Source: Marsupella aquatica
Taxonomy: Eukaryota > Plantae > Marchantiophyta
Direction: 5' to 3'
DNA length: 64,000 nt
NCBI GenBank assembly: GCA_973895155.1
Contig: OZ316892.1
Location: 23,351,168 to 23,415,167 of the forward strand
Shown piece by piece: positions 19,378-47,286 of this stretch. Both the position numbers and the translations under genes were made by a program. The notes below the pieces were generated by a model that was not told the DNA's origin, searched no databases, and was given only the letters and a program-made list of their open reading frames with translations. Each line of letters starts with the position of its first letter. The first letter of the stretch is position 1.

Positions 19378-19776
19378 ATGGCACCAATGAGAAAGCTGAG
19401 AGCCACATTGACTGAACGTGACAATGGGAGCTACATCTTGAGTTGGCAGGATCCTACTGATGTTGACAATGCTCCACCCGTTGTCCGGATTGTTACATTG
19501 GAACAAGTCCAAGCTACATTTCCAGAGTTCTGCACTACAATTTCAGAGTGTCATGTGGATCTCAATCCTGCAGTCCCGATTGAACAGTTTATCATGTGCG
19601 CAGCATACAGTTATGCTGAAACTATCATGAGAAGGAAAAGATATCAGGTCTACACTCACTTGGCTTATGTAGCTGGGTTTTCTGATACAACCAAGTTTCC
19701 TGAAGCTGTTGAAGCTTGTGTGAAGGCAACTTGGCATGATGAAGGGGAGGAATTTGTAGGATTTATCCCAAATTAG
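19378..19776 (+). CDS. KolX-like protein (132 aa) with a P2X7 C-terminal 'ballast'-like motif
   Basis: The C-terminus RRKRYQVYTHLAYVAGFSDTTKFPEAVEACVKATWHDEGEEFVGF fits the RY.AYR...G...R..LP.CV...IR..FP...G.Y.GF pattern of KolX/P2RX7_C. The gene is convergent with the transposase, and AATAAA lies at 19835. Confidence 0.7.
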   Translation: MAPMRKLRATLTERDNGSYILSWQDPTDVDNAPPVVRIVTLEQVQATFPEFCTTISECHVDLNPAVPIEQFIMCAAYSYAETIMRRKRYQVYTHLAYVAGFSDTTKFPEAVEACVKATWHDEGEEFVGFIPN

Positions 19777-19850
19777 GAGTAGATAGGCTTCTGCTATGTT
19801 TCACTGTTGTTTGAAATTTTTGTGAAGAGCTACTAATAAACTTTTTGCAG

Positions 19851-19966
19851 AGTATAACTCCTGCTGGTTGGCAGCGGAAGGGGTTCAATTCCCCTTGGGA
19901 GTACATGCAGTAGAACTCCTGCTGGTTGGCAGCAGAAGGGGTTCAATTCCCCTTGGGAGTACATGC
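19851..19966 (+). ncRNA. Two tandem 58-bp tRNA-like units lacking an anticodon arm (mascRNA-like fold)
   Basis: Each unit has an ACTCCT/GGGAGT acceptor stem, a GCTG-GTTGG-CAGC D-like arm and an AAGGGG-TTCAATT-CCCCTT T-arm. Confidence 0.5.
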
Positions 19967-20109
19967 GTTACAATACCATAAAAGTTCCCTTGGGATGTGT
20001 CCATATTCAATGAAATCAAAATGAACAAGGTTGCCAAAGGGACTCAAATGATTACTATCTCTCAAAGCTGTTTTTTGTTGTCATATGTCATTCAATAACC
20101 ACAAACTTT

Positions 20110-20540
20110 ACTCATTCCCTCACTTGGTTCAAGTCCTAAAGTTTTATCATTCCCTCACTTGGTGGTCAAGTTATAAGATTGTCTGGCCACGAATGAAAAA
20201 ACTTGACAATTTTTTTTTTATAAAAGTGTGAAAAGTTATGAACTTTTCACATTCACTCACTTGGTGCTAAGGTTATAAGATTTTTTGGGCCACGGCATGA
20301 AAAAACCAAACTACAAAGATAATCATTCCCTCACTTGGTGCTCAAGTTATAAGAGTTTTTGGGCCACAGCATGAAAAAACAAGACTACAAAGATAATTTA
20401 TAAAAGTGTGAAAATTTGGCATAGCACTCCAGGTGTTTGTAATAGTGTACCCCCCCAAGCAGGTTTGCTAACCCTACCCAAAAAGGTTGGAATACAAGTG
20501 GTTTGCTAACCCTATCCAAAAAGGGTGGAATACAAGTCAT
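20110..20540. repeat. Degenerate tandem repeats between the convergent Kolobok genes
   Basis: CATTCCCTCACTTGGT-like units occur four times, and GGTTTGCTAACCCTA.CCAAAAAGG.TGGAATACAAGT occurs twice. Confidence 0.75.
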
Positions 20541-20864
20541 GCCAGGTCTCAGCCCTCCTCAAGGAATCACCCCTGCAATAGTAAACAATAAATTAGAATT
20601 GAGGTACTTTCACACTACAATGAATTGTTTCCAAAAAGATTGAGTCACAACTTTTCACTTACCTGAGGTATGTTAGCTGAGGTCATATATGGAGGTGTGA
20701 CTCCATATGTACGCTGACCTTATATAGAGACACTACTTGGGTGGTAATGTTTGAGCAACCAGGATCATCCTGCCAAAAAAACTCATTGTAATTAGAATTA
20801 CCATGAGCATAGAGTTTTCTTACATTTTATGTTGGCAATCATATTTATAGAGCAGTGTGTTACC

Positions 20865-26800: not shown

Positions 26801-29800
26801 ATGCTGATAATGGTAAATTTGAGTGCATTAATAGTGGTCTGGCAATCATTTGGAGTCTTTTAATAACGGATTCTGCTATTCCATTTTGAAAGTGTACGTG
26901 GGGTATAGAGTACTGAGTATCAATCCCTGCTGTCCAGCAGAAGTCGTCGAAGGCTTTGGATGTAAATTCTCCTGCTCCGTCAACTCGTAATATGCGTGTG
27001 GGGTGCTCAAGGAACGCTTTCAATTTTAAGATATGCGCAAGTATTCTTGCGAATACCATATTACGGGTGGAGAGTAAGGAAATTTGTAGCCATTTTGTTG
27101 AGGAGTCGATGAGTACCAGGAAATATTTGAATGGCCCGCTTGGAGGGTCGATGGGGCCGCATACATCTGCATTGAGCTGCTCCAAAAAGTTGGGGATCTT
27201 GTAGACTATTTTTGGTATCGATGGGCGTGTTATCATCTTGCCCTGTGAGCAGGCCATGCACTGTGGAGCCATGGCGTTTGGTTTGGCCGTCTGTGGGATT
27301 CCTTTGGAGTCCCTAATTATTCTGGTGTACATATTAATGCCTGGGTGGCCGAGTCTGCAATGCCAGGTATATGTGATATCCGATGTATCCTTTTCAATGT
27401 GGTATGATTGTATCTTAGCTGCATATAGTCCAGGTGGGATTAGTGGTAAGTTCTCCATAATATGTGGTAATCCTTCCTTGTTCTGTACTAGTTGTAGGAT
27501 TTCAGTTTCGCCTTGTTTTGCTGTTCTTAGTTCATAGTTATTCGCGCGGATATCCTGAAAGTTGATGAGGTTCCTGGTAGCTGTAGGGGCGTATATAGCT
27601 GCTGCTATCGTAATTTTGGTCCCGCCTGGGAATATAATATGCGCTTTTCCTTTGCCTTCTTCTATTTGGTTGGGGCCTGCGATAGTTGTCATCGGTCTAG
27701 ATGATGGGGTGATAAAGTCAAAATATTTGCTTTGTGTCAGTATTGTATGTGACGTTCCGCTATCAATAATGCATATATTAGGGTCAGTTAATGGTGATGT
27801 ATACAGGTGTGAGATAGCAGTATGTGTTTCAATTGGGGCGTCTGCAGGATCTTGGTATGTCGCTATATTTTCTTCGATTTCCATATAGTTGCCTTGTGGG
27901 TTTTGTCTCGTTAATATGCGTTCATTTGTATAGCGTTGTGCCACTTGGTCAGATGCTCTGCATATCTTCCTGATGTGGCCGATCTTACCACATCTGTAGC
28001 ATAGTTTCTGATTATCGTTTGTTGGGTGATTTTGTGGGTTTCGCCATGTGCCCCTGCTTCTGTTGGTGCCACGGTTCCAGGTAGTTCTTTGTGTGGGGAG
28101 CGGGTTTCTGCCCTGGTAGGGGTATCTCCCTTGTCCCCTGAATTTTCCTCTGCCTCCCCTGAATGGTTTTCTTCCTCTTGGGTTGTCTCGTCGCCCGTCT
28201 TGGTAATTTCCATAGTGTGATTCGGGTCGATTGGGTGGTGGTTCTGATCCTACTGGTATTTTTCTTGCGTTATGTAGGGCTACAATTTGTTGTTTCTCTT
28301 CGACTAATAAATGTGCAATGAGGTCGGAGTAGGTCGTAAAATTCATATTTCGGTATTGGGTTCCCAGGGCTATATTAGCTTCTGGGAATGTTGACAGTGT
28401 TTTATCAATGCGGTCGTTATCATTTACTGGGTGGCCGCACATTTCTAGTTGAGATGTGATTCGGAATAAGGTGCTGTTATAATTTGCAATTGTTGTGTGG
28501 TCCATGACTCGCAGGTTGTGCCAGTCCCTGCGTGCTTCTGGGAGCCATATTTCGCACATGTGGTCGAATCTGGATTTGAGTTGATCCCATAGCTTGCGGG
28601 GATTTACCTCATTCATATATTCGTTCTTCAATTGTGGTGATAGGTGTTGCCTCAATAGAAACGCGGCTTTAGCTTTTTGTTTGAGGGTTAGATTTGTATC
28701 TGTATATAGTGTATCTTCAATTTCTTGAAATGCAAAATATGTTTCGACATCTGTGATCCATGTAAGGTAGTTTGATCCGTCTACCTTTAATGCAGGGAAG
28801 TGTAATTTCTCTATGGTATTCATTCTTAATACAATTTGGGATTGTAATGTTTAGTTACAATTGAATATGGAGGTTGCAGGGATTTGGTATTGGTATACCA
28901 ATTATGGTTGTCGTGTGTCTATCCTTGGTCTTCGGTATGATGAATCTTCGATGGCGCGTCTCGTATTAAATTGCGCTCAATTGGATGTGTAGCGATTTCT
29001 AGTTGATGGGGAAAATTTTGGGCTAAACAAGCGATATGGAGTAATTCTAATTGGTGAGGTGTTCTACATGTTCTCAGTGCCTGTACATTGCCCAAAATAG
29101 CGATGTGCTAGCGCTGAGAGGGGAAAAGAAAGGTGGGGGTCGGTTTGGGCGGTTATTGGGAGGAGGGAGAAAAAAAAGTGCCTTTTAAGAGTATTTTACT
29201 CGTGAAAACATCAAGGTGATCGAATTACCAAAAGACTGATTTCAGAAAAAAAAATGACTAGAGCATACTCGTGCTGATAACGTGTTAAGAGTTGGGATAC
29301 CAATGCTTGGAATAATGTGTCCACTCTTCATTAAGGTGTGGCTTTATATAGCCATGAGGTTACATGGTCTAAGGTTAAAGGTAACCTTAGCTTAGGGTTA
29401 TATGTAAACTATGGTTTACAACAGAAACTATGATTCACACTATTTGTAAGGGGAGAGTACTATGTGCTTGTTGGTATGGTGGTTTATAATGTGTGGACAT
29501 TGGTAGTCACAGTTTATGCAAGTATTGGACAATGTGTTCTTGTTGCTATTTACCAGGGCCTTTGTTATTGCTTGACATATAGATTATAATGTGTGGACAG
29601 TACCCTGTGGTGCGTCCCATGGCTCCCTAAACCCAAGAAACCCCCCAGCTCAAGCCGATTCCCGCAGGTTTCGTGCTTGGCGAGGCCGTTTCCGCGGCTT
29701 AGCGGCATGGGACGCTGCTAACCTTCTACTACTACTATTAACATTTTACACACATATACTGGACAGATCCTTCATCGGGTCATGAGATACGTAGCCGGCC

Positions 29801-32800
29801 TAATATAGGCCTTCCCCTGTCTTCCCCTCCATCTTGTTAGGTATGTTTGGATTCCGCCGCCGGAATGATCCCCAATAGGCTTGGTTAAGCCGCTAAGACC
29901 TCTCTCAGCTCGACACATCCAACTCTCACTCCCCTGCTTACTTTCCTTCCTTCTGTTGATGTGGGCACTCTTCACACAAGTTAATGCGACACACAAATAG
30001 CAAAATGACTCATTCTGACTGAGTCATACCATGCACTTGCCATACAAACAGTACATCTCATACACAAGTTCTGCGAACTAAGCCGTGAGGCCAACTCTAT
30101 TCAGCTCTTAGGCATGAGGAAACATGAATATACACAAGGGTCACTGTATGACTAACCGAGAGCTTCTCGTACTACTTGATCCCAGCCCGGCTGGTGCAAA
30201 CTAAAAACTTGCTAAAGAAGAGGCCCTGAGCTCCCCGCTGCCCAGGTACTTATCCTGGTAGTGGATCCGCCCTTCTTTGCATCGTAAGCCTAATCTACTT
30301 AACAGTAATCTACTTGCCCGAATCTACCTATGTACAGCAAGGCAGGAGCACAAGTGTTGCTTCTACCAGTGGGACCGCAATCCCACTAAGCTAAGTGTCA
30401 GGGCCGCTCCTGGTTCTGATCCTAATCCTAAACGTGGAGATCCGTGCCCGCCCTGCCCACTCACGCCTCCTCCCTCCACGTCCGCCCTCCCTAAAAGGAA
30501 CGGCGCCCTTGCACCGTCACGACACCGGTGGTGGATCCTCAATGGACGCCCCCAACACATCCTCCTCAGCCACTGCCGTTGGCCCGCCTACTGACAGATT
30601 ACCTGCCATTGACCGAGTCAACTCTCCATCGGCCTGACTGGGTCCACCTTCGGCTTCAGCCTCGACACCGGCCTCGGCAATACCCACGGCTTCGGCTTCA
30701 GCCACTCCCACGGCTTCGGCTTTAGCCACTCCCACGGCTTCGGCTTCCCCTTCCCCTAGGGTAGTTGGATCCTTAGCCGTGACCCTGTCTGGGGTCGGTG
30801 CTGGGTCTACCTCCTTGATCACCACGGCCTGTGAAGTCGTATTACTCCTTGACCCTGAAGGTTTCCGCTTCTTCTTCGTTGGTGGCTCGGCAGCTGGTCC
30901 CTTCCCCTTCCCACTTACCTCCGGCACTGGTGCAGGTGGCGCGGCTTGTCCTTCGGCAATTACCACCCCTGGTAACTGGTTTGTCCCAACAGGAGATGGA
31001 CCTGCTGCAGCTAAGCATTTAAATACTGCGGCTTGTTTCTTCAACCGCTCTGTTTGGTTGTCGGCCCGCCGCTGTAGGTTCTCCATCTTCCTCGTGATTT
31101 CCTCCAACTCCTCTTGGGTTTCATCCAGGTCCTTACGTGCCCCCTCCAGCTCGTTTTTGGCCTCCTCCTGCTCCCTGTGGGCTTCCTCCAATTCCTTCTT
31201 CAAGGTAGCCCTCTCCTCCTGGGTTGCTCTTAGCTCCTTGTCGAGCTCTGCAATGATGACAGACTCCATCTGGTTCATCTTGGCGTAAGTCTGTTCGAGC
31301 ATCTCGTCCTTCTCCCTTAGGTCGGCCTTGAAGCTGGCCGTCAGGGACGCAAGCTCCTGCTGCAGCGCCATAATCCCTTGATAGGATTTCCCTAACTCGA
31401 CCTCCTTCTGCTCAAGGGCTCCGCGGATTTTCTCGAGCTCCCCTTTCAACGCCCATTCCTTTCTTTGGGTCTCTGCCATGGCCCGACTGTTGGCTGTTAT
31501 GTGGGCCTCCTCTGTATTCTTCAGCTCTTGCTTCCACTTTTCCCTTTCTTTGATCGTGTCGGCCAACTCTTCCTGCGTCTGAGTCAGTTTATCCTTGATA
31601 TTCTGATTATCAGCCTGCGCGGCGTCCAACTGCCCCTGCATGATGTTCAGCTCATGTTGTTTAATCCGCAGTTCATCTTGGGCTTTCTTGGCCGCCCTTA
31701 GATCTTCAATCTCGGCTTCCATCCTCCTAAGCCGCCGAATGACCTCATCCTTCTTGCTTCTCTCTAAAGCCACCGCTTCTTCTAATTGGTGCTTCTCCAA
31801 CTGCTCCCTATGGAAAAAGGGTCCTACCTCCAACTCCTCTCCAAAGATGTCGAGCGCAAGTTCCCCACACATCTCACCATACTCCATGGCTCTATTCTTA
31901 GCGTAGGTGGAGTAAGTAGAAGTGATCGGCATCGCCCATCGTGGCCTCTGCTCCCAAGCCGTCCTGCGGATCTCTTCAATCGTGGCTAGAGGTTTGCTTC
32001 CTTTTTCGGCTAGCCGCCTGATGTCCTCCGGCCAATCTCCTCCTGGTAAATCCTTTTCCTTAGCCAGGGCGGCCTCTTCCTCCTGCTTGATTCGCTCCTG
32101 AAATTCCTGCACCGTCTGTTTTATGCCGTCGAAGCTCGGGGGAGCAACATCTGGTGGGGGAGACTCAGGGCTACTCTGCTGGTTGGGGTCCCCTCGCACT
32201 ACCCTTGGAAGTGTGGGGACAAACCGGCCACAGGTCCTTACTCCTGGAACGTGATGGTCCGACCCATAGCCGGAATTATCATGGCTGCAGTCCTCCACTG
32301 CCTCCTCTACCTCTTGGACGTCCGGCTTCTCCCTCTCCTCTTCGTTGGTAGGAGCTTCAGGCAATTCTGCCTCAGATTTGGAGCTTGAGGTTCCCACGTA
32401 CATTCGAACACCTGGCTTGGATTCCGGCCTGATTCTCTCCTTGTCTCCAGCAAAGGGGTTTTCTCTTGTGAGCCGGTGTAGGCCTACCTCTGTAGTAGTG
32501 TCCTGCATTGTTGCCGTTGCCGTTGTTTTTGCCGATGCCGATCTCTTTTCTTTCTCCAGTAGTTTCAGCAGACTCTGCATGCCTGGTTGCTGCATCGGCA
32601 AGTCTTCCTTCCTGGGCCTAAACACCTGCTCGATCGTAGGACTAACAGGTGGTTGAGGCTTCTCAGCCAACGGCCTCGGCGTTGGAGCTTCCTCGGGTGC
32701 CCTTACCTGCAGGGGAAGTACCGGGGCAAAAGTCTGACCTCTGGCATACCGGCACAACAGCGGCATGTGATAGCCAAGCCGCGACACGCTCCCCATGCCG

Positions 32801-34837
32801 ATTACCTGCTGCTCCTCCTTTAAGATCTTCTTCAATTGGTTGAGGAGGTACCCGTTGTAGTCCCGGCTTGGGTCTGGCCTTTCTGCCAGATAGACCTGTG
32901 CTTTGCCGATCTCTGCCCTCGGCAAGTTACAATGCATGGTCACCCGCAAGAAGTCGATCATCTCTCCTATGTGCGGGTTGGTGCAGGTGTTCCGGAAGAA
33001 GCCATTCTTCGTTGATGGCCCGGGGAACGACCGGAACTCCTTGTCAGGCAAGGTCTTCCTGGTATCAACTTTGGTCTTATTGCCCATCGGCAAGCCAAAC
33101 ACTTCGGCAATCACCTTGGGAGTAAGATAGAAATCCTTCCCATATATCCTCGTGCAATTGGTCTCGGGTTCCCATGACCCCACGAATTCTAATAGGTCTG
33201 ACTCCGGTACCTCCGGCTTCAGCCATGGTAATCTTACAAAGGCCTCCAAGCCGGATCCGGCCATGAAGCCTTGGTACTTCTTGGTCTGCATGGCCGTAAA
33301 GCATGCATCCTCCTCCCGTGCAAAATGTAGTTGCACCTCCACCGGTAGGGTTGCCGCCCAGCCCTTCCAGGTGTCATCCCTGGTTGGAATGGCCTTGATG
33401 GGATCGACCTCCTCCTCTTCGGCTTCTCCCTGCCTCCTGCTCTGCTGCTCGGCTGGCTTCTTTGGTGCCGCCGACCTCGTTCTTTTTGCCGGGGTGGCTT
33501 CATCGTTGACGGCTCCCTTCCTCTTCATCTCTGCTGCCGTGGAGGTTTCTCCTAGCACCGTTGCCTGGGTCCACCTTTCCGTGCTACCCTTTAATTCCCA
33601 GTGTATGTCATTGCAGTTCTTGATGGCCTCTCGGATGCCGACGACGCTGTCTTTGCAAAACAGAAGATCGTCGAGTTGATTGGAAGTAGGCGTCCACAGG
33701 AACTCGTCCTTGATGAGTTCGCCTCCTAAGAAAGCCGTCTTCTGCAGCTCCCACAATCGAGCGAGCTCCTGCCGTTCTCGAGCTGCCCTTTCTGACTCCT
33801 CGTCCTCGTAAGTCTTGATGTACTCAGTTGCCCGTTCGAACAGGCATCCCCAGAAATGTGCCGCTTGATTGACGTTGCTCATACCCTCCTTAGGTTGATC
33901 GTCGGTATCTACTCTCTCCCCGAGTGCTTGCCTAAGCAGCTGACAGTAGTTGGCCTCCCGTAGTCGTCTGCCTAGTTCGTGCTCGCAAATGAGCCACCAT
34001 CTCCTGCAAGCGCTCCTTACCCCTCTCCTCTGCCGGTCCTTCTTCCCGTTGATCCTTCCTAGCCGCCGACGCTTAACGCACCCTAACCCTAATCGGGTTT
34101 TCACCCTCAGCCTTACCTCCGGCCTCTGCCCGGGTTCCATGGTTGCCCCTAATTGTTTATATTTTCCTTGTTTTGTCACTATACTAAGGTGTTCCTAGGG
34201 TGCCTTCCTGCTTTACCCACTTAACCGGCCGAGTGATTCCTGTCTAGGCATCACATACCCTAATTTTGTTTACTATTTCACTTGTGGTTTATTAGGACAA
34301 ATATTTGAGTACCCTGATATTTGTTATTATAAATAAGAACCTATATATATTTGTTTCTGCCCATTATGCATAGTTGACATAAGTACCATCAGCGTGAGTA
34401 AAAACAAATAATGATAAAATGGGCAAATGCTAAGTGAATGAAAGAAGGTATCCACATACCTGACGTGGTGGTCGTGAAGGCTGACCCATCTGCTGCTCAC
34501 TCGTGGGCGATGGTTGTGCCTCGGGCCCAATTGGAGCTGCCTCTGATGCTCGCCATACCCGAAGCTCCTGAATTGTCGGTCGCGCACAATCAAGTAACCA
34601 TGTGACAACAGTGGAGTGTGTGGTATCCTGTCCAAGTAGAGCTCTAAGGTCCTCCCACTCATCCCACCGATCTAGTGGGACCCGGATTTCGGGCTTGGCA
34701 TCCGGTCTCCTCCTTTTCTTGTAGTCTATGTCATCACTCGGATACCGCTGTCTTGGTGGACCACCTCCCCGGGGGGGGGGGGGGCGATTCCGCCTCCCAT
34801 CCGGAAGAGGGGGGGGGGGATGGCCTGCCGCACTCAT
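20865..34837 (-). CDS. Kolobok-like DDE transposase, 6 exons, 759 aa, apparently intact frame
   Basis: Exons 34837-34460, 23203-23042, 22938-22329, 22201-21577, 21456-21305 and 21217-20865 are all GT-AG, phase-compatible and total 2280 nt. Motifs include LDTRWDS (D1), VIHDD (D2), KDLWH (DxxH), HWAGDHRLC..C and SETYHSVMGKYATKRIHF...ARLSCAAMDWNEN (E). A SAP/HeH-like segment LQDWLKSRGVRGYSTLRKEALI is also present. Confidence 0.82.
23422..29423 (-). mobile_element. Ty1/Copia Bianca-lineage LTR retrotransposon
   Basis: Identical 141-bp LTRs (23422-23562, 29283-29423) with TG..CA ends and TSD GAAAC. PPT AGGGGGAG lies next to the 3' LTR. The PBS CGTTATCAGCACGA is complementary to the anticodon region of tRNA-Ile (half-tRNA priming). 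The gag starts FPALKVDGSNYLTW. Confidence 0.93.
24198..28823 (-). pseudogene. Bianca gag-pol polyprotein (gag, CCHC knuckle, protease, integrase, RT, RNase H) split by frameshifts
   Basis: ORFs 26523..28823, 26063..26401, 25593..25934 and 24198..25538 carry CYRCGKIGH, IIDSGTSHT, WHCRLGHPG, LRVDGAGEF, MDVVTAYLYG, LYVDD and ADIFTK. Confidence 0.9.
29606..34255 (-). mobile_element. 4650-bp solo-LTR-like insertion containing a long ORF
   Basis: Termini TGTGGTGC...GCATCACA with a perfect 5-bp TSD TACCC (29601-29605, 34256-34260). No terminal direct repeats and no gag/pol were found. Confidence 0.75.
30517..34179 (-). CDS. 1220-codon intronless ORF: plant-transposon (Athila ORF1/PMD-like) domain plus long coiled coil; the true start may be an internal ATG (e.g. 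33882)
   Basis: GLEAFVRLPW...DLLEFVGSWEPETNCTRIYGKDFYLTPKVIAEVFGLP resembles Ty3/Gypsy accessory-ORF domains. An E/K/Q/L-rich heptad region follows, and there is a TATAAA on the minus strand near 34155-34160. Confidence 0.7.
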   Translation of the reverse strand: MTKQGKYKQLGATMEPGQRPEVRLRVKTRLGLGCVKRRRLGRINGKKDRQRRGVRSACRRWWLICEHELGRRLREANYCQLLRQALGERVDTDDQPKEGMSNVNQAAHFWGCLFERATEYIKTYEDEESERAARERQELARLWELQKTAFLGGELIKDEFLWTPTSNQLDDLLFCKDSVVGIREAIKNCNDIHWELKGSTERWTQATVLGETSTAAEMKRKGAVNDEATPAKRTRSAAPKKPAEQQSRRQGEAEEEEVDPIKAIPTRDDTWKGWAATLPVEVQLHFAREEDACFTAMQTKKYQGFMAGSGLEAFVRLPWLKPEVPESDLLEFVGSWEPETNCTRIYGKDFYLTPKVIAEVFGLPMGNKTKVDTRKTLPDKEFRSFPGPSTKNGFFRNTCTNPHIGEMIDFLRVTMHCNLPRAEIGKAQVYLAERPDPSRDYNGYLLNQLKKILKEEQQVIGMGSVSRLGYHMPLLCRYARGQTFAPVLPLQVRAPEEAPTPRPLAEKPQPPVSPTIEQVFRPRKEDLPMQQPGMQSLLKLLEKEKRSASAKTTATATMQDTTTEVGLHRLTRENPFAGDKERIRPESKPGVRMYVGTSSSKSEAELPEAPTNEEEREKPDVQEVEEAVEDCSHDNSGYGSDHHVPGVRTCGRFVPTLPRVVRGDPNQQSSPESPPPDVAPPSFDGIKQTVQEFQERIKQEEEAALAKEKDLPGGDWPEDIRRLAEKGSKPLATIEEIRRTAWEQRPRWAMPITSTYSTYAKNRAMEYGEMCGELALDIFGEELEVGPFFHREQLEKHQLEEAVALERSKKDEVIRRLRRMEAEIEDLRAAKKAQDELRIKQHELNIMQGQLDAAQADNQNIKDKLTQTQEELADTIKEREKWKQELKNTEEAHITANSRAMAETQRKEWALKGELEKIRGALEQKEVELGKSYQGIMALQQELASLTASFKADLREKDEMLEQTYAKMNQMESVIIAELDKELRATQEERATLKKELEEAHREQEEAKNELEGARKDLDETQEELEEITRKMENLQRRADNQTERLKKQAAVFKCLAAAGPSPVGTNQLPGVVIAEGQAAPPAPVPEVSGKGKGPAAEPPTKKKRKPSGSRSNTTSQAVVIKEVDPAPTPDRVTAKDPTTLGEGEAEAVGVAKAEAVGVAEAEAVGIAEAGVEAEAEGGPSQADGELTRSMAGNLSVGGPTAVAEEDVLGASIEDPPPVS

Positions 34838-37800
34838 AGTAACCTACCCTAAAACCTATGTAAAAAAAACCCTATCTACACTCTAGAACGGAGACCGGAT
34901 GCCAAGCCCAACCCGGTGAATAATAACAAAGTTGTACAAAAAGAATGCAAAAACACAAGGAGAAAGAAGAAGTACTAACCCAACAATAGAGAAGTGAAGA
35001 GGAATGGCAAATGTGAACCACACATACCCTTTTGCCCCGTTACCACTCCTCCACCCCTCTTCCCCATTGGGTACATTTGTGACTGTTGGATCATGGAGGT
35101 TCGAAAGGGTCTTGTAACTAACCCTAATTGCCTCCCTAAGTGGCGGCTGCACTAACTCCCGTAGTTGCCATCCGCATGGGGTACAGGATACAGCAGAAAC
35201 TGCCAAAAATTGATACTTTACCTGTGTCTACGAGAGTGAAGCTTGAACCTGAGACCTGTGGGAAGAAAGGCAATGATTCCAACCGATGTGCTATGAGGAC
35301 TCTTCGAATACAGGGGAACCATAACTAATGATAAAGTAGTAACAGAATCCCAGCCCCCATGCCGGGCGGAGTGAGCCCTGTCCGTGGGTACCTCCGCAAC
35401 GTCTGAGGAACCCTTACAAAGGCCGGCGGCTCCCACCCGCCTATATCCCCTGCAAGGTGTATTTCAGAGGCCAGGTGTCCACTGCCCTGCCTGCCCGAAA
35501 ATTTGAAATTTGAAATTGTGTAGGCAACCAATCAAAAGAGTCTGTTTCTTTTTTGGTTGTTTCTCACTTACTTTGGGTCATTTTTTATTGCTGTTTTTTG
35601 CTAGGCGTAGATCTCAAAGAGATCTTCAATCTGAGCCATAGATCACCTCATACGGTGAACAAATGAGATGCCTGGGAGGTTCGATCGGAGGGCTGTGGTG
35701 AGGCACGAATCCGCAAACGCGACACTCGCGTTTCTGGAATGACTACTCCGGGTGACCCGGAGTACTTAAACCACGATTAGTGGTTTAAGGGGATGGGGGG
35801 TTTAGGGACCATTGGATGGAGTCCATAGATCCCCACCATCAAAAAGTCGCATATTGGAAGTTTACTCAGCTGGGCTATACTTTGAGAGGGCCGAGTAGTC
35901 ATGACTTAGCACTAGTTTTTTAGGGGCTAGACAAGGCTTGGAGTGTAATTAATTTAGACACTTGAAGTAGAGGGAATGGGGGCCTTGGGTTAACATGAAA
36001 CCTACATATTGATGGTCGCGATCACTCTGAAAGGCAATCTCTTTTCATCCGGATGGCTAAGATCACTCTAGGGGTTGCCATGTCATAGTAAGGTTTGCGC
36101 CAAACGGCTCTTTGCACCCTTTCACCCTTGCGCCTTTCAGTCGTGTTTTACTTTTCTCACAAAGTATTGAGGCTCAACGTTGAATGTTGCGGTTAGTGTC
36201 TGCCACTCAGCGTTTGGGGCGAGAGGGTCGAGGGGTTTAGCAAGGTTGCGCTGCTGTTTTGCCTCAAGAGTGTGCAATCAAGGCTGCAATCAGGGCTCCA
36301 GGAGCTACGGGAGCGTTGTGCAAAGTGCTGCGGGAGGCTATGCAATGTGTTGCGGGAGTGCTGTGCAAAGCGCTGTTGTAGGAGTGCTACTGCGGGAGTG
36401 TTGCGCAGGAGTCTGAGCTCAGTGGGAGGGTTTAGGTTTGGCTGATCGATGTGCATTTACATTTGTGGATAGTAGTTTGCATTGGAGTTGCAAAGGAGCT
36501 CGCCAGAGTTGTGAAGGAGCAGGTGTGGGAGTTGCGGGCTGCCATCAGCCCTCCTGTTTTTCTTTTACTCCCACAGTGAGCTCCCGTATGAGCTCTTGTG
36601 TGAGCTTTGTTCAGCTGCGGTGGGTGCTGAGCTGATTTCCGTGCTCAACTGTGCTGTGCTGATTTTCGTCTAACAAAGCTCGAGGGAGGGTTGTCGGTTG
36701 GACGTTGGAGCTGCACTTGTGATATTTTGGGGTTCGGGCAAAGCATTGTCGTTTTGCTAACGCTGCGTGGTGGAAATTGGACCTGCCAACTCCTTGTCTA
36801 TGGTGTTGTGGAGTTGGGCGAGCTGCGACAAGGGACCGAGCCGGGCGACCTGTGAATCAAAGCCCATCGACCGCTGTTGAAGGTTTGATGTCCAGATTTC
36901 TTGCCTGTGAGTCCCCATGGTTGTAGTGTCTATCCCGGTCTCTTGCGTAGTGCTCGGCGTAGTGCCCATGATTCGATAGGGAACTGATTCATGAACTGTG
37001 ACTGCTTTTCTGCTCTGCGGTGTGAATATGTTGGCACTTGCTGCACTATGTTGGCAACGGAAAGCGTAGACTCGGGTTCGGATTCAGAGTCAATGTTCAC
37101 AGAACTCCATTTTTCAACATTGCTTTTGCTTTGTTGCTGACTGTCCTTGCCCGTAAAAGGAGTTATATTCTCTGAGCTGCGGTTGGTTTGCAAGTCCCTG
37201 TAAGGTATCAATGTACCTTTCTTCTCATTTTTTCCGCCTCACTTCCCTCTAAACCTTTCACTTCGAGAAATTACCTGAAACAAATCACTGTCTTTCTTGT
37301 GTCTATGTATGTAGTGTCTGAATTTCATTGCAATCTATTGCATACCAATCACTGCAAGCCATTGCCATTGCTATCTCTATTATGTCTCTATTGCTATCTT
37401 CAAGCTGTCTGCGCAACTCTTAGGTGAGCTCGTTCATTGATGATTCATCGATTCTATGTTTTGAGCTGGACTTGCGCTTTGTATTGCATTGCAAAGCTTT
37501 GACTTTGAACTACCATTTCTCGTTCATAGCTACGATGACCACTACATTGCCTAACTCTGTTCATTTGCAGTAGCACAAATACTCGATTTCATTGACAGCT
37601 TTGTCTCTGCATCTATTTTCGCTCTCTTTTTCCCTCCCCTTGAATTGTGGGCCTTAAAATGTTAGTTGGCTTATGTAGTTTTTATGTCCCTCCGCTATGT
37701 CAATGCGTGTTTCATTGCATCAGGGCATCAGTCGTCGTTTGCCTATAACATTTCTGTTCATTCTCTGTCCACTCATTTGATGTAATTCTTCCCGTTGCTG

Positions 37801-38996
37801 CCCAATGCTGTGATTTTGTGCTTTGTCTGGAATGCTATGGCGCCCATGCTACAATTTGTGGTTTTTGTCTAAGCACAAATCCTCTCTGTGCCTGGTCTCT
37901 GTGTTTAGTCATTTGGATTGATTGTACAGACGTTTCCTCTTCTCCCAGTCCTTGTCATCCACCAGCCAAAGCACATTGGATTGTTTTCAAAGGAGACCTG
38001 TGTAGTTCAAAGGGTTTGATCTGTGCAGCAGATTTGAGCAGATTGGCGGTTGTTAGTTTTCTTCTTGTAAAACCTGTCTGTCTTTTCTGCTTTTGGCCAT
38101 GCTCCTTCACTTCTTGCTGCAAGCTCAATGTGCTTCAGCTATGGCAATATTCACTTACCTTGTCCCAACGCCACTGCCGTGAGCTGCGGGACAGCCAACG
38201 GAAGCTGTGTACAGATTGCATGTAAGTCAAGGTATTTTATGGATTGCGGAATAACTGTCCAAGTATGCTGCAGTGGTCGGTCTTGTGCAGCTCAATGAGC
38301 CAATTTCATTTTCCCTGTGCACTTCTATTTCTCAGAGAATTCCCTGGTCATGCTCATTTCCCCCGGAGTTAGAGAACAAAGAAGAAGAGCTGACTAATTG
38401 TAATTCCAATCCATATCCTGATCGGTCAAGGATTGTTCACTACATTGGCCTTGTCATTGGCCGAGGTCACCAAATTTTGCTTGGTTTCATTCCTGTGGAG
38501 CACTGCTGTGATGGATGAATAGTTTTGTCTTGCCTTGAAGTGGGACATTGGATATATGAATCCCTCAAGCCTTGTCTGTTTTCAAAAGCTCACATTGTTT
38601 ACCTTCAGCTATGGGCAGTTGACATCTTTTAGCATTCTTTGTGGTGGTGCCTTTGTTGCAGAGCTCCTGCTCCAACTGCCCCTTTTTCCTGGTAAGTTGT
38701 GCAACCTTGATTCCAGTATAGATTGAAGTATTCTTGTCTTAATTGTGTCTATGTACATAGTGTCCTTCATTGCAACTATCGCTTTGACCTGCTGAGTTTC
38801 AGCAAAGTGAATAAGGCATTTTGCCATAAGGCATCCTGCCATCATTCCAATCAACTTAAACTAAATTCTTAAGAAGGCTGTTCATAATGGTAAGGAGATA
38901 GTGACAACTTTGTGGTTGGTGACATGTACATGTAGCACATGTGATGAGTGATTCACTTATGTTGGACAATGGCACTAAATTGTAGTTGATGCAGAG

Positions 38997-39553
38997 TTGT
39001 CAGACTCTCAACCAAGTGGGAGCAGGGTGAAGCGACGTCAAAACTTGGGAGCAACATTGGATGCAAGTAAGATTGTAGATGCCCTAATTGAAGCAAGTAC
39101 AATATTGGCAGATACTGAGATGATGTCGCAGGGATATCCTGCTACACAATCAGAAGTGTCAAATATGGATGCAGATTCTTTGAAGAAGAGTGTAGCCAAT
39201 TCTCGATCACCAGCACAAAACACTCGTGCCAAAGTCATGACTCGCAACCAAGGTATGAATAATGTCATGTATAAGCCACCCAGGAAAGCCAAGAAAAACA
39301 GCTAGGGTAAGGTGGAGGTGATATCATGGGAGGATGACTTGCAGATATTGTGGGTACAGGCATTTTGCGACCGGATCATGCTAAATTCCATGGCAAAGTG
39401 GTCCCGGATGACCATGTAGTAGTGTTGTTGACTACAGTGATTGTATCTAATTTGCCATTTCCAAATAGAGATGATGATCCACCTCAGGAAATAATTGCAG
39501 ATGCAGTAGGATCTTTTGTGCTCTGGCCATCAAAGTGTGTTAGTCTGCAGTGA
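38997..39553 (+). pseudogene. CACTA-2 TnpA-like C-terminal exon (Tnp1/En-Spm-like domain), one internal stop
   Basis: VGTGILRPDHAKFHGKVVPDDHVVVLLTTVIVSNLPFP...IADAVGSFVLWP matches the HG..IP...V.V..V...LP.P...DA.G..I.WP signature of CACTA second-gene C-termini. Confidence 0.65.
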
Positions 39554-40007
39554 CTGAATGCAAGTGTAGATAGAACCATGTGAATTGTGTTACATTTTGA
39601 CATTGCCTTGGAAAGATCCAAGAAATATCTGTACCAATTTTTCCATTTGGTAAAGAGGATGAAGGATTCGTTATCATTATGTGTGACATGTATATTTTTG
39701 AATTTTGTGTGTATGTATGAAACAAGTGATTGATGTCAAACTATGGCTGTAAGGTGATTGTCTATGATACTTGAATCTTTTTTGTATCATTTCAATATTA
39801 GTGTGTATGGTAGTTTCATGCTTTGTGACCTTATAGAGTGAGTTCATTTACAGTACACAAAAAAACATGAATGGAATGTCTTATTTGTGCACAAGAGTGA
39901 GTTCATTCCAAGTAGTATAGTGGGGTCTTCATCACTCATTTCGAGTTGACATGAAAGACTTATACATACCCCACGAAGTGTCTCCTTTAGTTGTTTTGTA
40001 AACCCAC

Positions 40008-40304
40008 CTCGGGGGTCTCACTATATGGGGACCTCCCCATCGCCTGCGACGTTTTGAGGCCTGGGACCCCCTAAAATGTAAGAAAAAAATATTATTTTTT
40101 AACCCCTATAAAGTTGGAATATTCTTGGAATATTCTAAAAATTGGATTAAAAAGACCCTAATGTTCTTATAAGTCTCAAAATTGAATTTAAAAGACCCTA
40201 TTGTTCTTCTACAAAAATTCTTAAGTCTTCCCTTAGAACCAATAAAATGACCCTATCCTTCGTCGCACGTGATATGCCATTTTTGTGGAAGTGAAACCCC
40301 CGAG
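40008..40304. mobile_element. 297-bp MITE, copy 1
   Basis: TIR CTCGGGGGTCTCAC / GTGAAACCCCCGAG with 8-bp TSD AAACCCAC. Confidence 0.92.
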
Positions 40305-41889
40305 AAACCCACAAAGTATACTTAAAGACTACCCTCCATAACCTGTTTAGTCCTTCCCAATGACTCACCATCGCACCCCTTAAAAGACTGAAAATGACTC
40401 ACCAAAGCTACCCAAACAAAGACTCGTGAACAAGTTCTATAAAGGACTCAGTTGATTATAGTAACAAAACATATGACTCATAGTCCTATAAAGGACTGGA
40501 GTCGTTTCCGAGTCCTATACGGTACTACATAGTCGTTTAATGGGGTCTAAATACCCCCCGGTTTCTACTAGTGCCATAAGCTCCTCCCGGCCTTCAATTC
40601 CAGTTCGCGACCACGCACCTCCCCGGCTTTTGCCAAAGAAAACATCTCCCGACGCTCTTTCGATGCAAAGCCCGACTAAGGAGTGGCACTTTGGTCGGGA
40701 AACCTAAAACTTGTCCAACTATGGATCCGATTCTTACAGCATCGGAACAAGCGATGCTATAATTATCGGAAACATAGTGGATCATGTCCAATTCTTACAA
40801 CATCGGACCCCTCTTGTTAATTCCTTGTATTACTCATGTCCGAAGTCTTTTCCGATAGAATAACTATGGCAATTAATTTGGTTGTATGTTTGATGACCCT
40901 ATGTTGGTTCTATGTGTTTAAGCAGGGTTTTAGGGATAAGGTGGACCGTTGGAGCCACGGTCCCTTCTCATTGTGTGGTTTGGAGATGGTTGGTATGTAT
41001 AGATGTTGCGAGTTATATTTGAGAGTTGTGTGGTATTTACATTGTGACATTTTGGGGGCAAAATATGGATTCACCTAGCTAGCTAACCTTATGCATACAG
41101 TGACATGCCAAATTTTGCAGTTCTTTTTTGCAGAGGGTTAAGTCACTCAGTTTTTGCAGAGGGTTAGGTTGCTGAGCTTTTTTGGGGGTCCATTTTTGTA
41201 ATGCATCATGCACAGCGAGAGCCTGCACGTCTGAAAGGTATGGTTGGACCACTCTAAAAGGTTCTGGAGGTGAATGTTGGGAGGTGCCCGACATAGGTCG
41301 GCCCCCTAGCCAACTATAATTATGGTCATACAGAGGTTAATTATTGATCTTGTTCCACACTAATTAAGTTGAAGTGTTCTTGTGCAGTAATTTCAGACTT
41401 GTCTTAGCATATAGTCTAAGGTCAAGATCCTAGTTGGCACTGCAGAGCGCGGGTCTCATTAAGGTATTATTGATTTAAACATTTTTTTGTTTTGCCTTAA
41501 GACATATATATGTAAATCACAATGGTGCGGATTCTAAAATATAATGACATTGTGTATGGATGATGGGCAGATGTCCAGTTCTGGGAGTTCTGAGTCGGAC
41601 TCAGACTCAACCTCGTCATCCCCCTCCTCCTCCCCCTCCTCGGACTCAATGTCCTCCTCCTATAGGACCTATTCCATGTTGGTGTGTTAGATGTAAAGGC
41701 ATGGTGGTTCGTCAAGCCTGGGAAGCCATTGAGCACATTGAGAACTATGGCTGACATGAGGGTGATTTACCTGGATATTCTGCTCGCCAGGTATGCATCA
41801 TTTATTGCGCTTGGAGACATTGATATGCACAAGTTGTAACATTGCACCCATACATTTATTAATTGTTGGTATTTTTTGTGATTGAATAG

Positions 41890-42900
41890 CCTGTGCCTCG
41901 TAGGACCTCTCCTCCATTGGTCTCTAATGACTTATGGGTAAACACACTTTTGGCTGGTGCAAGAGAGTTGTTAGCAGCATCATCAGATCCCCCTCAATGT
42001 AGCCTCCCTTGTGTTGATCTGGAGACTATACCAGTTCCATCTAGGGTTGGTCGCACCCGAGCACGTTCCCAAAGACAACAGTGTCGTTATGAACCCTTGG
42101 GTGTGCATGAGACCGAGGACCAAGTTCTGCACCATACTCATAGAGTACCGCCAGGAGAGGACTATGTGGAAGTGGAAGGGAGGTTGGGGCTTTCATATGT
42201 CACTGGGAAGGCATTGACAGTCTTGAAGGATTTCTCATCTGAGAGATTCAAAATACCCCCTGGCCTAACCACTGACACTCCTATCCACATATGGGGTCAC
42301 CAATGGATAGTGAAGACATCCTCCCTAGGTCCTGACATAGGATTTGGCGTATTTTCCTTGGAGGACATTTTGGTCCCTGCAAAGCCATGGCCCCGAGGTT
42401 ATGATGGGGAGCACCTATTTCCATATATTGGTCCCGTATACACTTCAAAAATTTGGAACATTCTATTGCGCCAACACCCATCTTGGGGTGTCTATGCATT
42501 GCAAATGGATTCTGATCCAGATGAGGTCATGCGGAGGCCTTGGCATTCTCGGATGATTGATGGGGACCCTGTTTGCTCCGACAACATAGCCGGGTACATT
42601 AATAGTACTCATGGGAGAGGGAGAGGACTTAGGCCTAATGTTGAGTGGATACAAATATTTGGTCCACCTAGAGAGCCTTATTATGTAAAACACATGGATG
42701 ACCATGTCATGACTGTAGCCATTACAACCATTAGGGCTGGCGAGGAGTTGTTTTGCGACTATGAGTGGGATGCTCCCAAGAAAGCATTCCTTTCTCACCC
42801 TGTGAAGGGCAGACATGGATATACCACCTCTTTTGTTGAACATAAAATACATGACAATGGTTTCCAAACAAATTTGGTTCTTTGTATAAATAAATCCTAA
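41890..42900 (+). CDS. SET-domain protein exon inside intron 1 of CACTA TnpD
   Basis: VKTSSLGPDIGFGVFS (GxG), IDGDP...NIAGYINST (motif III-like) and IRAGEELFCDYEW (ELxxDY). The acceptor AG at 41888-41889 is in frame with the TnpD exon-1 donor at 41790. Confidence 0.82.
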   Translation, partial: PVPRRTSPPLVSNDLWVNTLLAGARELLAASSDPPQCSLPCVDLETIPVPSRVGRTRARSQRQQCRYEPLGVHETEDQVLHHTHRVPPGEDYVEVEGRLGLSYVTGKALTVLKDFSSERFKIPPGLTTDTPIHIWGHQWIVKTSSLGPDIGFGVFSLEDILVPAKPWPRGYDGEHLFPYIGPVYTSKIWNILLRQHPSWGVYALQMDSDPDEVMRRPWHSRMIDGDPVCSDNIAGYINSTHGRGRGLRPNVEWIQIFGPPREPYYVKHMDDHVMTVAITTIRAGEELFCDYEWDAPKKAFLSHPVKGRHGYTTSFVEHKIHDNGFQTNLVLCINKS

Positions 42901-43627
42901 ACCCTAAACCCTAAAACACTTGTCTCATTGTGGGTCTCTTCTAATATTTATGTATGTTTGTGAACTGCTAGAATGCGTATGTTCAACCAGATGTGGGGGT
43001 ATTATCACGAGCAATGCGACAACACCTTGTCGAGGCCATGAAAGATTGGCGTAGGGCTCAAGCTTCAGCGAATGAAGATATCCCTCCTGAGCAAGTATCT
43101 AATGCCACCAATGACATACTTGAGGATGAGAGGGCCATGGATGATCTCATGCACCAGTTCTATGACGTAGAGGATGGTGACCATGGTATGGGTGATGCAT
43201 TTGACACCACAACACATGCTCATCATGACATTCCTTCACGTTGAGGTTCCCCTCTAGACAATGGGAGGAAGCTCGTGACCATGCACAAACAAGGATTTTT
43301 GAGGGGTCACAGCTGTCTCGACTATCAGGAATAATGTTATTGTTGAACTTGCAACAAAGACATGGTGCAATCAATCTCCTTCTTGATGATCTTTTCAGGA
43401 CTTTGCATAGTCGGATTTTTCCAGAAGGGAACTGCTTGCCTAGTTCCTGGAAAGCAACAAAAAAGGTGTTGAAATCCATAGGTCTCAAATATGAAGTTAA
43501 ACATGCTTATTTTCCTCTTATCCCTAGATTACGGCACCAGTACCGATGTGCGGAGTTGGCTGAGTATATGGTGTGGCATTCCAAGAACCGGTCAGATATG
43601 ACTTCAGATCCGCCCACCATGCGTATG

Positions 43628-43924
43628 CTCGGGGGTCTCACTATATGGGGACCTCCCCATCGCCTGCGACGTTTTTAGGCCTCGGACCCCCTAAAATGTA
43701 AGAAAAAAATTTTATTTTTTAACCCCTATAAAGTTGGAATATTCTTGGAATATTCTAAAATTTGGATTAAGAAGACCCTTATATTCTTATAAGTCTCAAA
43801 ATTGAATTTAAAAGACCCTATTGTTCTTCTACAAAAATTCTTAAGTCTTCCCTTAGAACCAATAAAATGACCCTATCCTTCGTCGCACGTGATATGCCAT
43901 TTTTGTGGAAGTGAGACCCCCGAG
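43628..43924. mobile_element. 297-bp MITE, copy 2, inserted in the TnpD coding sequence
   Basis: Perfect 14-bp TIR CTCGGGGGTCTCAC with 8-bp TSD TGCGTATG. Near-identical to 40008-40304. Confidence 0.93.
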
Positions 43925-46900
43925 TGCGTATGATGGTGGACTCACCTGCCAATAGGTTTGTGGAGGACCGATGGGGTGAGTTCAAGACAAATCCACGTCA
44001 TGTACGTCTAGGTTTGGCATCAGATGGGATCAGCCCCTTTGCATTGGCAGGGAAGGCCCAACCATACTCAGTTTGGCCAGTAGTCCTTACAAATTACAAC
44101 ATCCCTCCATGGATGGCCATGAAGAAGGGTCATTTGCTGCTCTCAATGATTATCCCAGGCCCCAAACAAGTAAAAAAGATTGATGCTTACTTGCAACCAT
44201 TGTTGGAGGAGCTTCAACAACTATGGAGAGGAGTGGATTTCTATGATGGTCGAGTGCTTACGGGTGGTTTACCTCGTGAATTTAAATTGAAAGCCATCTG
44301 TATGTGGGCCATACATGATCTTCCGGGTATGTGGAAATATACCTCATCCCATATAAATTATGCATGGTTTGTCATTTCTGGATAATATACCTCACCCCAT
44401 ATTAATTATGCCTTGGTTTATCATATATTGGAGCCCTGGCCATTGTTTAATGTATGCAGTGGGTGTGAACATTGTAGGGTTTGGATATATCTCTGGGTTG
44501 CAGGTCTCGGGATACCGAGCTTGCCCAACTTGTGGGCACGATTTGGAGGGAGTGGCGCGCCCAAAGTCTACCACCCTACGGAAGATAGTTTACATTGGTC
44601 ACACAAAGTATCTCCCCCCAGAGCATGAATGGAGGCGTGACCCATTCTTATACAACACAGATGATGGCCAACCAGACACACGCCCTCAACCAGTGCCAAG
44701 GGATCCACATTATTGGAAAGATGTATGGGATAGAGTGACAGACCCGGATGATCCATTACAATTGGCCCGATGTGGCATGACTCGATTGTCTGCATTAATG
44801 TCAAAGCTGCCATATTGGGCTGAGATGCCAATTAACCATTTGTTTGACCCTATGCACATTGAGGGGAATGTTGGGAGGTCATTGATTCGCCATCTATATG
44901 GAGAGAAAGACAACAACTGGAGAGAGAGTTGTGAGGAGATGGGGAGATGGCGATGCATGGCCCTCATGGGTTTTGGCCATCTATGGATCCTCCTAATGCC
45001 CCCCTGACTATTCACCCTCCTTGGGTATTGACCAGAGGTGAGCGGACTGAGTTTCGCAAACGTATAGGGTCAATGAGGTTTCCCACAGGTTATGGCGCCA
45101 ATCTTCGTAAGGCATTTGGGGGTGATGATTCTCCAAAATGGCCATCTTACCTGAAAATACATGATTTTCATCGGTTACTCGAACATGTCATTCCAGTTGC
45201 AATTATTGGATTGGGTAGTGAGGATCTTCGAGATGCCCTATGGTCATTAGGTAAGCTCTTGAGGTGGGTGTGTCAGAAAGAGGCGAATGAGGATGAGATT
45301 GCAGCAATGGACCTTTTTGGAGTGGAGGTATTCTTTGATGGTCAAGTTCACTTCCTCCTCCACCTAGTGCGTGAGGTTGCGATTGCAGGGCCGGTACATT
45401 GTTGTTGGATGTACTGGGTATATAGAGCAGTATATGGGAGTGATGAAGTCATATGTGTCAAATCATGCAAGAGTGGAAGGTAGCATTGTTGAGCGTCATC
45501 TTGGAGCAGAGAGCATGTTTTATTGTACAAACATTGTAGCTACACTTGATCCCAGAGCTCCAAGGGGCTGGATAGACGAGGCATCAAGGGAAGCAGACTT
45601 TGAGGATGACCGTCTCACAGGGGCAAAGGGAGAACGACTTATGGACTCAACTGAGCGTCTTCAACTTACTACATTTATGTTGTATAACTCGCCTGAGATT
45701 GTGGGAGATTGGACAACTTTTTATGAGGAGGAAAAGGCAAATAGTCGTCGGCCACGCAACTTCCCCAAGTTTGTCCCATACATGAGGGCAAAGTTGACAG
45801 AGATTGATGCCTTGTTGGAGCAAGGGGAGAGTGTGTCAGACTTCCCTTTGGTTACAGACAGTTTTCGCACCTTGGTTCATGGACCATTACTTACGGTGAC
45901 AACTCGGACAGCCATGTGGTCAAAGGGAAGACATTTTTGTGTGCAATGACTTGATGACAAGAGGGCAGCTACACAAGATTGTGGGCTCATGGGTTGGTTC
46001 ATCCAAGATTCACAAAGTAGCATATCTGATAGGAATCCAATACGCTCTATGGTGGCCCACTATGGAAAGATTGAAGAGATATTGAGTGTGAAGTACCATG
46101 CGCACACCACTTTGGAGGAGGTGGTGTTGAAGTGCAAATGGTTTTGGATGAACCTTGTTGGCCAAAACCAAACTTGCAAAGAAGATGCTTGTGGGTTCAC
46201 ACGGTTGAAGACAGGTGCAAATAGTGTCATTAGCTCAACTTGGAGAACCTCTGATCCATTTGCATTCCCCCATCATCTTGAGCAGGCCTTCTATCTTCCC
46301 TATCCCGATGATCCTGAGTGGTCCATTGTCATGAGTTATATTCCACGATCACGATCCATAGTCCAGGAGCGACCCAATGTAGTTGTAGTAGAAGATTTGG
46401 ACCCTGAGCCTTGAGGTCCTTGCTAGTGTACCTTGGGACCAATCAAATAGGACCACCTCTGAATGTTTACTTTTACCGGCATTATTTTTATGATTGTTTT
46501 ATTTCATGTACCCTCTCCTATGAGAGTGACCACATTTCTTAATAAACTTATGAATGTTGGTTTTCCCACACTCTGTCCGATGTAGTGACCAATGGAAAGT
46601 ACTCGGAAACATAGTGCCTTACAATTGTGGCAATATCCGATTCAATCTGCATCGGACCCCTCATGAAAGTTATCGGAGATATTTCCGATCCTCTCCGCAT
46701 CGGAACACTTCCGATGCCAAAAATAACGGAAATAGGGACCGATGGCTTTTGTATCGGAAAAATAATATGCGATGTAAAAATAATGGCAAATTGCGTAAGG
46801 TAAAATATCGGAACTGTGCGACGGTATTAGTATCGGAAGAGTGACGAGGCACAATATCGGAGCATTGGAAAAACACTGAAAATGTACTAGTGCATGTAAG

Positions 46901-46926
46901 GAAACCCGTAGATCCATTGGAGCTGA

Positions 46927-47263: not shown

Positions 47264-47286
47264 TCTCAATAGGGTGGGACTATCAC

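Follow-up and report, generated by a model that had tools for sequence, protein, structure and literature searches.

A SET exon long carried within the transposase gene of a CACTA lineage, likely of bryophytes

Introduction

What is a SET exon doing inside the gene of a transposase? The question is raised by a CACTA element in a 64,000-nucleotide stretch of the liverwort Marsupella aquatica (assembly GCA_973895155.1, contig OZ316892.1, positions 23,351,168 to 23,415,167 of the forward strand; this whole stretch is hereafter called the window), where such an exon lies between a short first exon and the body of a TnpD-type transposase. A preliminary description of this DNA proposed that exon 1 is spliced to one or the other, one promoter thereby yielding either the transposase or a SET lysine methyltransferase, the latter a possible anti-silencing factor comparable to VANC or TnpA. 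Comparison of the DNA with related loci and gene models indicates that a CACTA lineage, likely a bryophyte one, has long carried a SET exon placed after exon 1 and ahead of the TnpD body, and that this arrangement is real, old and conserved. The whole chain, in which splice choice at exon 1 is combined with an active SET lysine methyltransferase working on the chromatin of the element itself, involves predicted splices, a predicted activity and a predicted substrate, and we lean towards it on balance.

The SET exon and the transposase gene that contains it

The CACTA superfamily is defined by terminal inverted repeats (TIRs) that start with CACTA and finish with TAGTG (PMC4158355). The element carries perfect 14-bp TIRs, at 12656..12669 (plus strand) on the left and at 46879-46892 on the right, the 14-mer occurring once per strand in the window. 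A 3-bp duplication of the target site (TSD), CAT, precedes the left TIR and follows the right one. The transposase, though broken in this copy, is of the TnpD type, with Pfam matches to Transposase_21 (E=8e-38), DUF4218 and DUF4216. Together these features bear out the assignment to CACTA (En/Spm) elements. With a nested second CACTA element subtracted, the host element is about 10.5 kb long and reads, in order, left TIR, a minus-strand gene (open reading frame 2, ORF2), an intergenic stretch of about 1 kb, exon 1, the SET exon, the TnpD body and right TIR.

Coding exon 1 (41571..41790, plus strand) has a Ser-rich start and a C-x-C-x2-C-x13-H motif, and ends in a strong phase-0 donor (CAG|GTATGC at 41790/41791). 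Intron 1 (41791..41889, plus strand; 99 nt, 32% GC) leads to the SET exon (41890..42900, plus strand), with its SET core at approximately 42130-42783. An AT-rich spacer (42808..42971, plus strand) follows, containing an AATAAA at 42889, a possible polyadenylation signal of the SET transcript, as well as the second acceptor, and then the TnpD body (42972..46414, plus strand), with a likely intron from 44327. The donor and the two acceptors of the preliminary description (41889|41890 and 42971|42972) all hold up; both acceptors are T-rich and continue the Cys frame of exon 1 in phase 0. So does the identity of the SET exon, which matches Pfam SET with 28.4 bits against a cut-off of 22.4.

The SET frame had been described as open for over 330 codons. 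It is indeed free of stops from 41890 to 42900 in the window, but this length is rejected as a family trait, the family exon having about 305 codons. Position 42805, where the window reads AAG, is a TAG in sister copies from 4/4 runs (one covering contig per run), so the family stop lies at 42805-42807 and the last 31 codons of the window's exon are read-through. Sister contigs also lack 3 nt at 41890, which gives the junction Q|VP, identical to that of a Calypogeia model described below.

The arrangement recurs in a distant family and in liverwort gene models

The layout of the window (phase-0 donor, two phase-0 acceptors, stop of the SET exon, divergent left-arm gene) is found again in a distant family of 27 metagenome-contig loci which, being roughly 90-96% identical and all of one family, count as one comparison. 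Its intron 1 has 116 nt at the same place. Among the loci covering each site, the GT of exon 1 is retained in 15/15, the SET acceptor in 19/20, a stop triplet immediately behind the SET core in 17/17 and the AG|AAT acceptor of TnpD in 14/15. Read by majority, the family has open frames of 77, 266 and 315+ codons, each in phase 0. Four loci start with CACTACAAC, the left end of a CACTA element. TnpD is found downstream of SET by tblastn in 12 loci, 15 loci reach the first TnpD exon in the DNA alignment, and most loci that have no TnpD match stop too early on their contig. A single locus (L017) has SET and no TnpD match in the ~10 kb downstream; family similarity ends inside its SET, so that it looks truncated.

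Between the window and this family, identity at 4-fold sites is 14-17% in SET and 23-41% in TnpD, saturated in both cases, while the proteins are 42-44% (SET) and 51-57% (TnpD) identical. Conservation of the SET core across saturated synonymous sites, along with the presence of the layout in this family and in gene models from two liverwort genera, excludes a neutral capture confined to a single copy, a possibility that the preliminary description had set against its own proposal.

A search for relatives among 1.84 billion representatives yielded 83 clusters, and an organism is named for 9 of the 29 proteins looked up (7 from Riccia sorocarpa, 2 from Calypogeia fissa). The nearest named homolog belongs to C. 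fissa (69% in the SET core), and in a gene model of this species (P0001) the window's exon-1 residues lead into SET at the identical junction. Models of R. sorocarpa also join exon 1 to SET, two of them (P0048 and P0089) additionally carrying Transposase_21. The exon-1 motif stands ahead of SET in 10/142 stored homologous proteins, six of those ten being outside the profile. A search for longer proteins scored 0/2344 candidates, although representatives of 625 and 773 amino acids exist. The window groups with Calypogeia P0001, P0004 and P0010 (0.99) in a tree of 71 sequences, from which 41 short ones were dropped and which, midpoint-rooted with no outgroup, cannot give the origin of SET. Three distant Ceratopteris proteins from the profile search, 28-29% identical, fall in a distant clade. 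Proteins P0109-P0115, P0067, P0073, P0076 and P0081 form a distant branch of this SET family that includes Ceratopteris richardii and may sit in other transposons or in ferns. A 423-residue Logan protein (P0021) from a 2.1-kb contig contains both SET and the Cys motif of exon 1 in an uninterrupted sequence; it may come from a transcript after splicing or from a variant that has no intron.

Exon 1 and the decay of the window copy

The start of exon 1 had been placed at 41560. This is probably wrong, as homologous exons open with a Ser-rich stretch corresponding to the frame of the ATG at 41571, and the earlier start is rejected in favour of that codon. The ATG directly follows an AG, and the 220 nt from it to the donor do not keep the phase of the Cys frame. 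In one sister contig a stretch covering exon 1 is longer by 11 bases (their exact site is deduced, not displayed), and 220 + 11 = 231 nt, which is how long this exon is in the distant family. Since the extra sister bases would restore this length, the window copy likely carries a frameshift in exon 1. The TGA at 41752 noted in the preliminary description is there, but it is probably not the only lesion of the exon. Exon 1 thus having two lesions, the window copy can yield neither product and is dead.

The TnpD body of this copy has a frame break at ~43240, a deletion of ~43 codons at ~43510, a miniature inverted-repeat transposable element (MITE), frame changes at ~44960 and ~45418 and a TGA at 45947. 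The MITE (297 bp, 43628..43924) has an 8-bp target duplication, by the length of which it is presumably hAT-like, and a second copy at 40008-40304, the pair being 97% identical. The preliminary description had noted that the SET exon is open while TnpD is decayed. With about 6 (5-7) lesions in ~995 TnpD codons and 0 in 305 SET codons, the difference is not significant (P ~0.16, range 0.12-0.22); an argument from this contrast fails, and selective preservation of SET in the window copy is rejected.

Exon 1 seems to be the transposase's own first exon. The best Pfam match of homologous exons 1 in two families is Transpos_assoc (PF13963), a weak one in each case (L006, E=0.011; P0068, E=0.031), which suggests that TnpD likely needs exon 1. 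The DNA and the gene models together make it likely that exon 1 is common to the SET and TnpD products. In the sister contigs of the four runs the joints near introns are filled by unknown letters and are hence uninformative on splicing.

The predicted SET protein

An AlphaFold2 model of the SET core, made from 54 aligned members picked by similarity to the query, is confident (pLDDT 91.9) and has 250 matches in the PDB at E<=0.001. Against Set1, PRC2, SET8, SET7/9 and LegAS4 it gives Z 11-12, with a root mean square deviation of 2.4-3.4 over 124-140 residues. A single-sequence search of the PDB found no SET match, and a profile search gave weak matches (best E=1e-4).

SET enzymes bind S-adenosylmethionine (SAM) and catalyse methyl transfer through a set of motifs comprising GxG, YxG, an Asn, a terminal Tyr and the His of NH[S]. 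The SAM-binding GxG, YxG and Asn and the terminal catalytic Tyr are all found in the window and in ~90% or more of the 54 members (the two Gly of GxG in 49 and 52, the motif-III Asn in 48, the terminal Tyr in 48 with 4 gaps). The position that we take to be the F/Y switch mostly has small residues in these members, which would allow multiple methylation.

No special kinship with viral SET proteins (vSET) emerges: models of viral proteins match at 14-21% identity, no better than cellular ones, the Atlas neighbours of SET include giant-virus and eukaryote clusters equally, and 0/31 pattern matches on viral contigs are relatives. From prokaryotic genomes 1/32 came up, an archaeal stretch of 27% identity that was rejected at E=0.48 with the family profile. 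Within the 64-kb window there is no second homolog of the SET exon.

The left-arm gene, motif clusters and inserted elements

The divergent gene of the left arm, ORF2 (15351..16798, minus strand), is an accessory gene, possibly TnpA-like, which in this copy is interrupted by a stop codon and by a MITE (16279-16618). Its ATG is likely at 16798, and it may extend beneath the lower boundary of 15351. A left-arm gene 32-34% identical to it is present in most loci of the distant family. A faint hint points to Transposase_24 (an Atlas score of 0.87 with a cluster in which 11% carry that domain); ORF2 gave no Pfam match, no fold match and no informative Foldseek or VIA match, and its structure model is of low confidence (pLDDT 64). 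As the element has this separate conserved gene, SET does not replace the accessory gene, and a role of SET as its stand-in is rejected; ORF2 could be a DNA-binding partner of the SET product. Also in the left arm, an 81-bp tandem repeat at 13413-14297, with an open Gly/His/Ser-rich frame on the minus strand, may be a further exon of ORF2.

A 6-bp motif (TCCGAT/ATCGGA) is clustered at the left subterminal position (12736..13103, 13 copies), at two internal ones (40726..40856, 5 copies, likely the bidirectional promoter region; and 15069-15222, 7 copies) and in the right subterminal cluster, which together with the right TIR spans 46576..46892. It occurs 36 times in the 10.5-kb element and 13 times in the other 53.5 kb of the window (P ~1e-18, for a motif chosen by eye from the very clusters then counted).

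The two divergent genes are separated by the nested CACTA element (16804..40573), which is foreign to the host element, has 12-bp TIRs CACTAGTAGAAA with the TSD CCA on both sides, is 23.8 kb long and was inserted 5 bp upstream of the likely start of ORF2. The CACTA end at 40573 belongs to it and was rejected as an end of the host element. Inside it are a Copia element with identical repeats of 141 bp (at 23422 and 29283), an ORF of 1225 amino acids (30517-34194, minus strand) with little CpG loss and a DUF4417-like ORF (21567-22307).

Elsewhere in the window, a foldback-like element with long inverted repeats lies at 8478-9965, with a further CACTAGTAGAAA end at 8815. The MITE within ORF2 is one of two 340-bp copies that are 89% alike, the other (46926-47265) lying just beyond the right TIR. 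The region 51303-61884 holds two DUF7869 ORFs (51303-53051, minus strand; 60241-61884, plus strand), an ORF for an N6/N4 DNA methylase (58054-58623) and one of 637 amino acids (55547-57460) that is ParB-like by eye only; this gene set recalls the accessory cassette of red-algal Plavaka elements and holds no homolog of the SET family discussed here.

A possible mechanism and its alternatives

In the reading towards which we lean, the ~1-kb region between the divergent genes would drive expression in both directions, of exon 1 to the right and of ORF2 to the left. A transcript spliced at the near acceptor and polyadenylated in the spacer would give an exon1-SET product, and one spliced at the far acceptor, across a 1181-nt intron, an exon1-TnpD product, so that the choice between the two would ration transposase output. 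The common Cys/His domain would be zinc-binding and may link SET with the element via TnpD or ORF2 at the motif clusters. The likeliest substrate would be a histone lysine on the element, the resulting mark keeping the element expressible.

Several observations weigh against this reading, and they are given here with the alternatives on which they bear. As regards splicing, the Transpos_assoc scores (14.9 and 16.3 bits) lie below the curated cut-off of 27.7, and two of the three full exons of the L family, like exon 1 of the window, have no match to this domain. Early Met codons in the TnpD exon, present in both families, permit a separate start, and the joins known from gene models (Calypogeia and Riccia) are of exon 1 to SET only, while both splices of the window are predicted. 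The Met codons and the exon1-SET joins fit two tandem genes, with exon 1 serving SET alone and a separate promoter for TnpD located within the SET exon or beyond it, a design with a parallel in En/Spm families, which alternate between spliced and split forms (PMC13547354). We consider this arrangement unlikely: both families keep the phase-0 AG|AAT acceptor, exon 1 weakly resembles a transposase-associated domain, and the spacer between SET and TnpD has merely 164 nt in the window and 146 nt in the distant family (in whose aligned rows no AATAAA is visible). Moreover, the early Met codons do not line up with one another, and in Riccia P0056 the corresponding stretch, judged by eye, contains no Met.

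Concerning the enzyme, the His of NH[S] is a Ser in 53/54 members and no Cys-type post-SET region is present in the aligned members. The replacement of the His, with a chain that stops few residues past the terminal Tyr and has large insertions, could indicate a catalytically weak or dead SET that binds histone tails or partners as a decoy or adaptor. Retention of the SAM-site glycines, the Asn and the catalytic Tyr in ~90% of the members, similarity-chosen as they are, makes this quite unlikely. LegAS4, an active enzyme, also has no NH[S] His in the printed alignment, so the Ser makes the protein less of a canonical SET and does not lower the expectation that it works like one.

No substrate class stands out among the structures tied at Z 11-12. 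With the same splicing, the enzyme might restrain the element through an H3K27- or H3K9-type mark, or adjust transposition by methylating TnpD or ORF2. The SET model fits structures of PRC2 and SUVH6 as well as it fits those of activating enzymes, bryophyte transposons are repressed by H3K27me3 (10.1101/2022.10.24.513474; background also in PMC11982613), and transcripts spliced into SET are already diverted from transposase. Such restraint or a non-histone target seems rather unlikely to us, given that the known transposon regulators TnpA and VANC activate their own copies (10.64898/2026.08.24.746577).

Selection gives a divided picture. The preliminary description asked whether other copies keep SET under purifying selection, and variants among sister copies agree with this: within SET codons 44-268, 10/16 are synonymous against 23-28% expected (P=0.001-0.004, for the 40 best supported of 397 rows). 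Within the distant family, on the other hand, copy-level variation of SET looks neutral (omega 0.9-1.2), whereas TnpD variants common to two copies are constrained (omega 0.33, P=0.0008). Lesions are about as frequent in SET as in TnpD, at rates of 0.60 and 0.73 for every 100 codons (P=0.50). Conservation across saturated sites together with neutral variation among copies indicates that SET is held long-term by the active lineages rather than preserved after insertion, recent selection not being visible in the distant family.

The neutrality within that family would suit a neutrally captured gene fragment, which the conservation of SET across saturated synonymous sites and in two liverwort genera largely refutes. 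The same slight credence covers a single exon1-SET-TnpD fusion protein, as predicted SET-TnpD joins in P0041, P0048, P0056, P0080 and P0089 might suggest. The four joins that were read are each at a different place, three of the four removing the catalytic Tyr. A fusion is unlikely because the SET exon terminates in a stop in both families, and no donor within it scores near the exon-1 donor or is common to both (scored with approximate plant splice frequencies). Both capture and fusion thus appear very improbable.

Comparison with known systems

The closest parallel is with En/Spm of maize and with Arabidopsis EN/SPM3 and 7, in which TnpA and TnpD come from one gene by alternative splicing (PMC13547354). 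The element shares with En/Spm the CACTA TIRs, the 3-bp TSD, subterminal motif clusters, the TnpD domains and, likely, two products per transcription unit. It differs in that the second product would be a SET protein, whose exon lies within intron 1 and which uses the same first exon, and in that its accessory gene is separate, divergent and on the left arm. TnpA-like proteins, which bind clustered motifs and activate their own copies, are reported to be restricted to flowering plants, and the main text of that report mentions neither a SET domain nor bryophytes (10.64898/2026.08.24.746577). VANC of VANDAL elements and TnpA-Spm1 resemble the present case as element-encoded factors accompanied by clustered short motifs at the ends and inside; they are DNA-binding proteins, TnpA-Spm1 requiring host demethylases, whereas the candidate here is a predicted enzyme (10.64898/2026.08.24.746577).

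Long-term carriage of a SET domain is also known from red-algal Plavaka elements of the EnSpm superfamily, as PAG2, an accessory gene that stands apart and is fused to an N6-adenine methylase in the Plavaka lineage, unlike the SET exon within a canonical plant-type TnpD gene described here (10.1101/2025.02.11.637652). HarbingerS and MuDR elements of Phytophthora (PMC12730594) and Helentrons (PMC4067079) likewise bear SET domains, which have been proposed to take part in chromatin control or to counter it. They belong to other superfamilies and hosts, and theirs are incorporated genes, separate ORFs or captured fragments, not an alternative transposase exon. As for minimal SET enzymes (SET8, SET7/9, MLL/Set1 cores, LegAS4 and giant-virus SETs), the fold is shared at 17-27% identity, no subfamily stands out, and the protein has an extra N-terminal hairpin and helices.

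Transposon SET domains have thus been reported in oomycetes, animals and red algae, in the accessible text without a functional test (PMC12730594, PMC4067079, 10.1101/2025.02.11.637652). We found no SET exon inside a plant TnpD gene, nor a SET-carrying transposon in land plants, in the literature covered, which leaves aside Repbase Reports, most subscription journals and bioRxiv supplements (e.g. Supplemental Table 6, Bostrychia preprint). SET-carrying transposons and alternative splicing in En/Spm were known already; the nesting of a SET exon in a TnpD gene, and this in land plants, appears new against the literature covered.

Implications

A more far-reaching scenario is that bryophyte CACTA elements have had a histone-writing enzyme of their own since early land-plant evolution, with a splice toggle, a shared zinc domain, SET led to the motif clusters and an activating mark by which silencing through Polycomb or H3K9 is overcome. 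Taken in its entirety this is doubtful, and if true it would amount to a catalytic anti-silencing system in land-plant transposons. Provided that the SET product is targeted, nature would here also offer a compact module for epigenome editing. The lineage lies within land plants with tractable models (liverworts and mosses), the enzyme is small, its structure is predicted with confidence, and the layout ties SET to the synthesis of the transposase, so that whether transposons write their own chromatin marks becomes a directly testable question.

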